From a virus (lineage: Duplodnaviria; Heunggongvirae; Uroviricota; Caudoviricetes), in the IMG/VR virus record IMGVR_UViG_2671180454_000012: a stretch of DNA of 5,043 nucleotides; one strand, given 5' to 3'. Under the pieces are notes generated by a model that did no database searches, was not told the DNA's origin, and worked only from the letters and a program-made list of their open reading frames with translations. Below, one piece after another: positions 3,675 to 3,790 of the stretch (position 1 is the first letter of the stretch; each line of letters opens with the position of its first letter). The position numbers and the translations under genes are program-made.

Positions 3675-3790
3675 CTGGTGGTGATGGTGACATAAAAATC
3701 AAAAAATACGCCTTTTTCCGCGAACCGCCCGCCCCGTGGACAGGCCACCCCCACCAGGAGTACCTACAAAAAAGCCGGATTGCTCCGGCT
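3675..3790. repeat. Conserved intergenic module, copy 2 (terminator hairpin + GC-rich box + A/T tract + triplet repeat)
   Basis: Aligns to 1061-1176 by eye. Exact shared blocks are CCCGCCCCGTGGACAGGCC (3728-3746 vs 1112-1130) and CCCCCACCAGGAG (3748-3760 vs 1132-1144). Both copies have a hairpin plus A6 run at one end and a TGR triplet repeat at the other. Confidence 0.6.
3766..3790 (-). terminator. Rho-independent terminator after the SSB-like gene
   Basis: On the minus strand, 15 nt after the TAA stop: stem AGCCGGA / TCCGGCT with loop GCAA, followed by T7. Confidence 0.65.

Follow-up and report, generated by a model that had tools for sequence, protein, structure and literature searches.

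The window, that is, the entire 5,043-nt stretch analyzed here (IMG/VR record IMGVR_UViG_2671180454_000012), contains a short series of genes that are all read on the minus strand, among which two copies of a direct repeat are located. From the right end of the window, the C-terminal end of a primase is followed by a small ORF, an SSB gene, copy 2 of the repeat, a cassette of head genes, copy 1, and another small ORF:

4774-5043, minus strand: C-terminal end of the primase
between the primase end and the SSB gene, minus strand: 81-aa ORF
3806-4228, minus strand: SSB gene (Pfam SSB), directly upstream of copy 2
3395-3480, plus strand: terminator-like element between the repeat copies
1180-3271, minus strand: head cassette between the copies, consisting of the next two features
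3044-3271, minus strand: 75-aa ORF
1180-3047, minus strand: ClpP-like prohead protease/major capsid fusion (Pfam CLP_protease and Phage_capsid_4), frameshifted here
640-921, minus strand: 93-aa ORF (phrog_1561), which occupies the place of the phage terS

In eight genomes, including Shigella sonnei Ss046 (CP000038), the window is matched at 99.96-100% identity by an island inserted between cspD and clpS. The gene list of a relative of this island (L031) comprises Phage_integrase, Phage_AlpA, a D5_N primase, SSB, and the capsid fusion, the gene set of the island also includes DUF4222, and a pair of 18-bp att repeats delimits an element of ~9.9 kb. [quoted passage not shown] Judging by this layout, the host element is a ~9.9 kb PICI located between cspD and clpS.

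The 18-bp repeat, AATGGTGTAGTTAATTTT (window 171-188; L031 4095 and 13955), flanks the island and is the probable att core. To the left of it lies chromosomal DNA from upstream of clpS, and nearly all E. coli genomes match positions 1-285 of the window. Immediately 3' of the primase, at 4583-4760, there is a dense set of direct and inverted repeats with GGTGAACAG iterons, which, by analogy with the origins described for PICIs, is probably the replication origin of the island.

The copy of the island in the window is defective. The protease/capsid fusion is broken by a frameshift at 1902-1938, where ORFs 1902-3047 and 1180-1938 overlap, and in the eight closest relatives, IS elements disrupt the primase. 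Given the split fusion and these insertions, the island is decaying in this host, as it is in Shigella sonnei genomes, so that the packaging signals described below may be relics here. Both genes are intact in the relatives L031 and L035 (the fusion being 626 aa long), which have 13 more nt between the two predicted nicks in these signals.

A repeat search of the window recovered a 129-nt direct pair, 1047-1175 and 3663-3791, with 71% ungapped identity and a spacing of 2616 nt; in gapped alignments, the identity is 79-80% over ~130 columns and 87% within a 73-nt core (1088-1160 vs 3703-3775). When the left half of the window was compared with the right half using blastn, the sole pair found was 1063-1162 and 3679-3778 (83.3% over 102 columns, E 1.2e-23). 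In local alignment, the pair scores 56.5, and 100 shuffles gave 9.4 +/- 1.0 with a maximum of 13; the similarity is therefore far beyond chance. The initial annotation had described a direct repeat of ~100 bp with ~85% identity, its copies in the same orientation and ~2.5 kb apart, and these measurements agree with it. The spacing has to be corrected for a run of 152 N (3486-3637) that, in 8/8 relatives 99.96-100% identical on both flanks, is only 53 nt long (GTGTCGAATTAGGTTGTTTTTTGTTCGACGCCGGAACGTTCCCGAAAGCATTT), so the true value is 2517 nt. The small-protein/protease/capsid genes, the gap, and a candidate sRNA are all located between the copies, as that annotation had it.

Homology to phage genomes reaches well past the limits initially drawn for the repeat, spanning 954-1155 for copy 1 and extending from within the N run to 3772 for copy 2; the 53 nt under the mask, as read in the relatives, extend the homology of copy 2 to phage 1720a-02. 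Among 5426 E. coli genomes, 1210 are matched when copy 1 is used as a query. Both VT1-Sakai and the Stx1 prophage of EDL933 have the module between Rz, a lysis gene, and a DUF1441 gene, with the large terminase following; the position of copy 1 is that of the cos region of the EDL933 prophage. DUF1441 is a small-terminase family (phrog_141, E 6.7e-57), and the order of lysis genes, module, DUF1441 small terminase, and gpA-type TerL is common to the EDL933 Stx1 prophage, VT1-Sakai, 1720a-02, CP-1639, phi458, PhiR40_1, and mEp213 (phage loci with the module upstream of terS: L002, L007, L010, L037, L038, L039, and mEp213).

On the minus strand, both copies can be aligned to the cos junction of lambda base by base. 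The signals in register with lambda are cosQ (GGGTCCT, in copy 1), a spacer of 23/24 nt, the cohesive-end segment with its flanks, ACG/GGGCGG../CGCGG (slashes mark predicted nicks), and then an A/T-rich stretch; both copies read ACG/GGGCGG(5-6 nt)/CGCGG, as expected of a lambda-type cosN. The features of the two copies are as follows:

954-1155, minus strand: cos copy 1, from cosQ to the end of cosB, 85.7% identical over 203 nt to the VT1-Sakai Rz-terS intergenic region (E 9e-63)
1152-1175, minus strand: intrinsic terminator of the protease/capsid gene (hairpin 1158-1173, T run 1152-1157), abutting cosQ
1143-1149, minus strand: cosQ of copy 1, GGGTCCT, 24 nt before the predicted nick, vs 23 nt in lambda
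1108-1118, minus strand: cosN of copy 1, predicted cohesive-end segment GGGCGGGTCGG, in the lambda register ACG/GGGCGGCGACCT/CGCGG
1061-1076, minus strand: cosB core of copy 1, CGTCATCATCATCATG, at +43..+58, the lambda R3 position; VT1-Sakai allele
3638-3772, minus strand: cos copy 2 (cosQ-like, cosN, cosB), 89.6% identical over 135 nt to the phage 1720a-02 cos (E 1e-47)
3768-3791, minus strand: intrinsic terminator of the SSB gene (hairpin 3774-3789, T run 3768-3773)
3759-3765, minus strand: degenerate cosQ of copy 2, AGGTACT, with 2/7 positions changed
3723-3734, minus strand: cosN of copy 2, GGGCGGGCGGTT, with the predicted nick between 3734 and 3735
3675-3691, minus strand: cosB core of copy 2, GTCACCATCACCACCAG, at the lambda R3 position; 1720a-02/CP-1639 allele

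The predicted nick of copy 1 falls between 1118 and 1119, with the flanks ..ACG and CGCGG.., and the cosB of copy 2 continues into the N run. Upstream of cosQ, where the phages carry a palindrome (ATGATAAYCATTATCAT), the island has an intrinsic terminator; the GCCGGAGCAATCCGGC hairpin of copy 2 also follows SSB (or PerC) in L001, L003, L004, L011, L012, and L028.

The pattern of conservation is that of a cos site. In lambda-like phages, cosN has a conserved left half, GGGCGG, with conserved CG on its flanks, and a variable right half (PMC4669245). Across the phage and island sites compared here, the left half and the CG at both nicks are likewise invariant or conserved, the right half is free, and cosQ is invariant except in the lineage of copy 2. 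The stretch between GGGCGG and CGCGG is 4, 5, or 6 nt long in different fetched phages and islands, so the predicted cohesive ends of a single cos family vary between 10 and 12 nt. Furthermore, two homologous phages, as judged from the ends of the deposited records, terminate at the predicted nick: the record of phage cdtI begins with GGGCGGGAGCG and ends with ..CCTGCCACG, and that of phage Tritos also ends with ..CCTGCCACG, its base 1 aligning to the predicted start of cosN. The agreement between record ends and predicted nicks comes from these two homologues only.

The same comparison bears on a reading at the RNA level, in which the modules would act as a terminator-linked leader, an antiterminator, or an sRNA target preceding two operons. 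A good terminator starts each copy, the minus-strand folds of the copies are more stable than those of shuffles (z -2.9 and -3.2), and a CCUCC motif is present. Nevertheless, this reading appears highly improbable: neither copy matched any Rfam family at E up to 1, and the paired changes are limited to the two terminators, which the phage homologues lack, that is, the hairpins of the copies differ in a paired manner because they are two different terminators. Moreover, the conserved positions coincide with DNA signals (cosQ, the left half of cosN, and the CG flanking the nicks), and phage records end inside the module. An Rfam scan of the whole window, also at E up to 1, yielded only spurious miRNA-like matches in the iteron region. 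P4 CI-RNA (seqA/seqB/seqC), P1 c4-type RNA immunity, and HK022 put-like antitermination were considered from the sequence as well and dropped on the homology to cos.

Thus, as far as can be judged from sequence, each module is a complete lambda-type cos site (cosQ, which is degenerate in copy 2, cosN, and cosB) on the minus strand, placed directly after an intrinsic terminator. The explanation that we consider likely for the locus overall is that the window is the late end of a PICI and the modules are two lambda-type cos sites for packaging by a helper phage; the repeats would then exist because each copy is a packaging signal. A helper terminase would bind cosB via its small subunit and nick cosN, and island concatemers would be packaged towards lower window coordinates. 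We infer that both predicted sites can be cleaved and used for packaging by such a terminase. We know of no published helper of this island. An anonymous repeat would in this way become a defined packaging signal that can be tested.

The two copies differ mainly in cosB, as do the phages that they resemble. Copy 1 is 90% identical to Sakai in the cosQ-cosN segment, 92% in I2, and 91% in the cosB core (+43..+75); the respective values for copy 2 and 1720a-02 are 78%, 82%, and 86%. Between copy 1 and copy 2, the identity is 84% in cosQ-cosN vs 64% in the cosB core, and between Sakai and 1720a-02, it is 96% vs 63%. The crosswise comparisons of the cosB core give similarly low values (63% for copy 1 vs 1720a-02 and 64% for copy 2 vs Sakai). 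The TerS proteins of Sakai and 1720a-02 have the same C-terminal 90 residues, whereas their N-terminal parts, which bind DNA, differ; in a set of about nine phages and islands, the cosB core covaries with this N-terminal region. In the island L043, a mosaic TerS homologue (3290-3775), with the first 25 residues of the 1720a-02 type and the rest of the island type, adjoins a 1720a-type cosB (about 3936). A third cosB allele, GGCGGCGGCAGC, is common to phage cdtI and the SSB-side cos of the island in E. coli ECL27829 (L004).

This covariation supports the existence of two packaging specificities, without proving it, given the physical linkage of cosB to the 5' end of terS. Each cosB allele matches a different lineage of Stx-type lambdoid phages, and we infer that the two alleles let the island use helpers of two packaging specificities. 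The likely helpers of this common E. coli/Shigella satellite would be lambdoid phages of the Stx1/Stx2, 1720a-02/CP-1639, and cdtI types. The identity of the helper bears on the strain-to-strain movement of such islands and of the Shiga-toxin phages that they parasitize, and the pairing of cosB alleles with TerS N-termini would provide natural specificity swaps for studying cos recognition.

The second difference between the copies is in cosQ, which was reportedly defined as 7 bp by Wieczorek and Feiss in 2001. The canonical GGGTCCT is present in all 23 genuine cos sites of the fetched phages and islands, the lineage of copy 2 aside, and the altered AGGTACT is limited to one island lineage (the window, L001, and L029-L036); in the sister lineage L004, neither copy departs from the canonical motif. 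Lambda requires cosQ to terminate packaging but not to initiate it (PMC9026076), so copy 2 may be able to start packaging but would stop it poorly. A further reading is a division of labor between the sites, in which two cosB alleles would serve two helper specificities, the upstream copy with its mutated cosQ would be used for initiation only, and the cos sites would function as portable joints for PICI late-gene cassettes. We regard this as possible but by no means probable. A terminase starting at the downstream site would then neither halt at the upstream copy 2 nor shed the capsid cassette.

The altered cosQ can also be read as a sign that copy 1 alone is a working cos and copy 2 is a decaying or decoy duplicate, comparable to the dispensable cos2 of EcCICFT073. 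The departure from a motif that is otherwise invariant in 23 cos sites fits such decay; natural variation of cosQ has been reported as not apparent (PMC4669245), and deletion of cos2 in EcCICFT073 did not reduce transfer (PMC6092414). We consider this rather unlikely for the window, however, since copy 2 retains cosN, the flanking CG pairs, and a cosB that is 86-90% identical to that of 1720a-02, the dispensability of cosQ for initiation in lambda (PMC9026076) makes an initiation-only copy 2 possible, and both copies are canonical at cosQ in the sister lineage L004.

The two sites also bear on the fate of the cassette between them. The clpS/cspD site is occupied in E. coli 2017.18.02CC by an island (L012) and in ECL27829 by a two-cos island (L004), in which the order of SSB, cos B, head cassette, cos A, terS, and 93-aa ORF represents the same architecture as that of the window. 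The flanks of L012 are 97.7-99.6% identical to those of L004, but the ~2.5 kb head cassette between them is missing, with an 85-nt overlap at the join (blastn). Its single cos has the SSB-side (B) alleles at the terminator, -30, -15 to -9, and +12 and the capsid-side (A) alleles from +27 onward. The initial annotation had proposed looking for relatives that lack the head segment and have a single hybrid module at the junction, and L012 is such a relative.

The two forms may be related by deletion or by insertion of the cassette, and three routes could lead to the hybrid: homologous recombination between the direct repeats, insertion of a cos-bearing circle, or packaging from cos A to cos B followed by re-annealing of the cohesive ends. 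The hybrid is equally well accounted for by homologous recombination and by terminase cutting at both cos sites with subsequent rejoining. The two sites could be joined because they are direct repeats and because termination of packaging is independent of cosB, and joining would yield a single hybrid cos along with the loss or gain of the head cassette. The third route draws on results for lambda, in which ends mismatched at position 12 still cyclize, and either allele can be inherited (PMC4669245). L012 is thus a concrete natural case of turnover of a late-gene cassette at cos sites; should the division of labor proposed above hold, PICIs would gain, lose, and swap such cassettes at cos through cos-to-cos packaging and end re-annealing.

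The hybrid form is rare. At ≥80% coverage, the capsid-cos-terS junction was found in 162 E. coli genomes and the SSB-cos-terS junction in 2, one of which, ETEC1716 (L028), has kept both cos copies, leaving a single clean cos-by-cos variant, L012, vs about 162 genomes. A query spanning the corresponding junction for the window lineage (SSB, hybrid module, and 93-aa ORF) found no exact cos-by-cos deletion: in the seven matches at ≥80% coverage, terS or PerC lay in between, or the match belonged to the L004 lineage. Other islands that lack the cassette, namely, L043, whose cos is of the 1720a type, and L011, in which PerC precedes cos, are not obvious recombinants. In ETEC1716 (L028, 2558-2707), about 1.9 kb has been lost inside the protease/capsid gene with both cos sites retained, so that internal deletion of the capsid gene is a second, independent route of decay of the head cassette.

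The suggestion of the initial annotation that the repeats support recombination deleting or exchanging the head module therefore stands in part: the hybrid cos of L012 speaks for it, but the form is rare, deletion and insertion would both fit, and terminase cutting with rejoining is an equally good explanation. Cos sites without capsid genes are present in L012, L043, and L011, and the module occurs in phages as well, that is, regardless of the head genes, a distribution that had been counted in advance against recombination; a hybrid junction is nevertheless seen in L012. The second proposal of that annotation, that the repeats are the scar of a modular insertion, is not supported, given that the modules are cos sites that are present with or without head genes.

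The broader possibility that the repeats lack any function of their own and are only recombination substrates, or an insertion scar of the head cassette, draws on the existence of the cassette-less L012 with its hybrid module and on the differences in the content between cos sites among islands, which can be a protease/capsid fusion, a capsid with a decoration protein, or none. We consider it improbable. Both copies are full cos sites that share 85-96% identity with those of living phages, whereas the bracketed capsid is only about 50% identical at the amino acid level; the module is found in islands without head genes and in phages; and the two-copy state is common (162 genomes vs 1-2).

The reading of the modules as two cos sites for helper packaging also agrees with the conservation of the bracket itself. 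Cos sites on both sides of the cassette are kept in two island lineages, represented in 74 and 162 E. coli genomes, respectively, whose capsid genes are 69-76% identical in DNA, and in a Nissle-type island (L003), a non-homologous capsid/decoration cassette is likewise bracketed by two cos. The island capsid fusion is 49-51% identical in amino acid sequence to those of the phages that its cos matches at 85-96% nucleotide identity, so the cos sites have either stayed close to the phage sequences or been refreshed from them, and they do not stem from a recent capture. On the same comparison, we rejected a recent joint acquisition of the cassette and cos from one phage. Beyond these islands, a cross-genus scan of contigs with the SSB protein recovered 15 loci (Enterobacter, Klebsiella, Leclercia, Pectobacterium, and others), none of which has this cos beside SSB.

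L003 has three cos-like sites, at 5662-5846 (+), 6512-6696 (-), and 8951-9135 (-): a Stx-type site after SSB, a lambda-type site before a terS-like gene, and an inverted lambda-type site. The gene content of this island resembles that of EcCICFT073.

Compared with lambda itself, the sites share GGGTCCT 23-24 nt before the nick (replaced by AGGTACT in copy 2) and the ACG/GGGCGG junction with the variable right half and flanking CG; upstream of terS, they also have a specificity element at about +45 to +65 (PMC9026076, PMC4669245). They differ from it in the sequence of the right half of cosN, in a cosN length of 10-12 nt, in a cosB that has no lambda R3/R2/R1 but a triplet-repeat-like core, (CAT)4 or CACCATCACCACC, and in the island intrinsic terminator that stands in place of the upstream palindrome.

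Among known satellites, EcCICFT073 is closest in design. It is a Gram-negative PICI of ~10 kb with int, alpA, a primase, and a capsid homologue, and it has two functional cos sites (PMC6092414, PMC6739421), which have helper-like cosQ/cosN and lie where the phage has cos-terS. In the window island, however, cosN and cosB belong to the Stx-phage/cdtI/mEp family and not to that of lambda/phi80; the cosB of EcCICFT073 is unrelated to that of the phage and is read by Rpp-TerS, whereas the island described here copies helper alleles; and this island has no rpp, carries the ClpP-protease/capsid fusion cassette, and has one copy with a mutated cosQ. Redirection by cos-rpp of the EcCICFT073 type does not apply, with no rpp after either copy and cosB 86-91% identical to that of phages. 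Neither terS nor rpp adjoins either cos copy in the window island; in the relatives L004 and L012, a DUF1441 TerS homologue (phrog_141) sits between cos and the 93-aa ORF, and it produced no significant sequence match in PDB, including the deposited RppC.

The purpose of the two different cos sites in EcCICFT073 has been stated as an open question (Fillol-Salom 2018, PMC6092414; 2019, PMC6739421; Murialdo & Feiss 2022, PMC9026076). One of the two is dispensable, and its deletion even raises transfer (PMC6092414); a second cos, therefore, need not be useful. The cos-type SaPIs, SaPIbov5 and SaPIbov4, are also satellites that combine a helper cos with a diverged homologue of the helper capsid, Ccm (PMC5052747, PMC8569155), and two putative cos sites have been reported in SaPIbov4 (PMC6092414); they differ in being Gram-positive, in their unrelated sequences, and in their HNH-dependent terminases. 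PICIs with helper-like cos sites, sometimes two, have thus been published already, and the island described here adds another case, so that the gain is incremental.

The candidate sRNA of the initial annotation corresponds to positions 3360-3480 on the plus strand, opposite to all genes, where a promoter-like TTGACT, 17 nt, CACAAT is followed by a strong hairpin and a T run. The loose resemblance of this hairpin (GCGCCTCCGGTGG..CCATCGGGGCGC) to the cos core is probably fortuitous.
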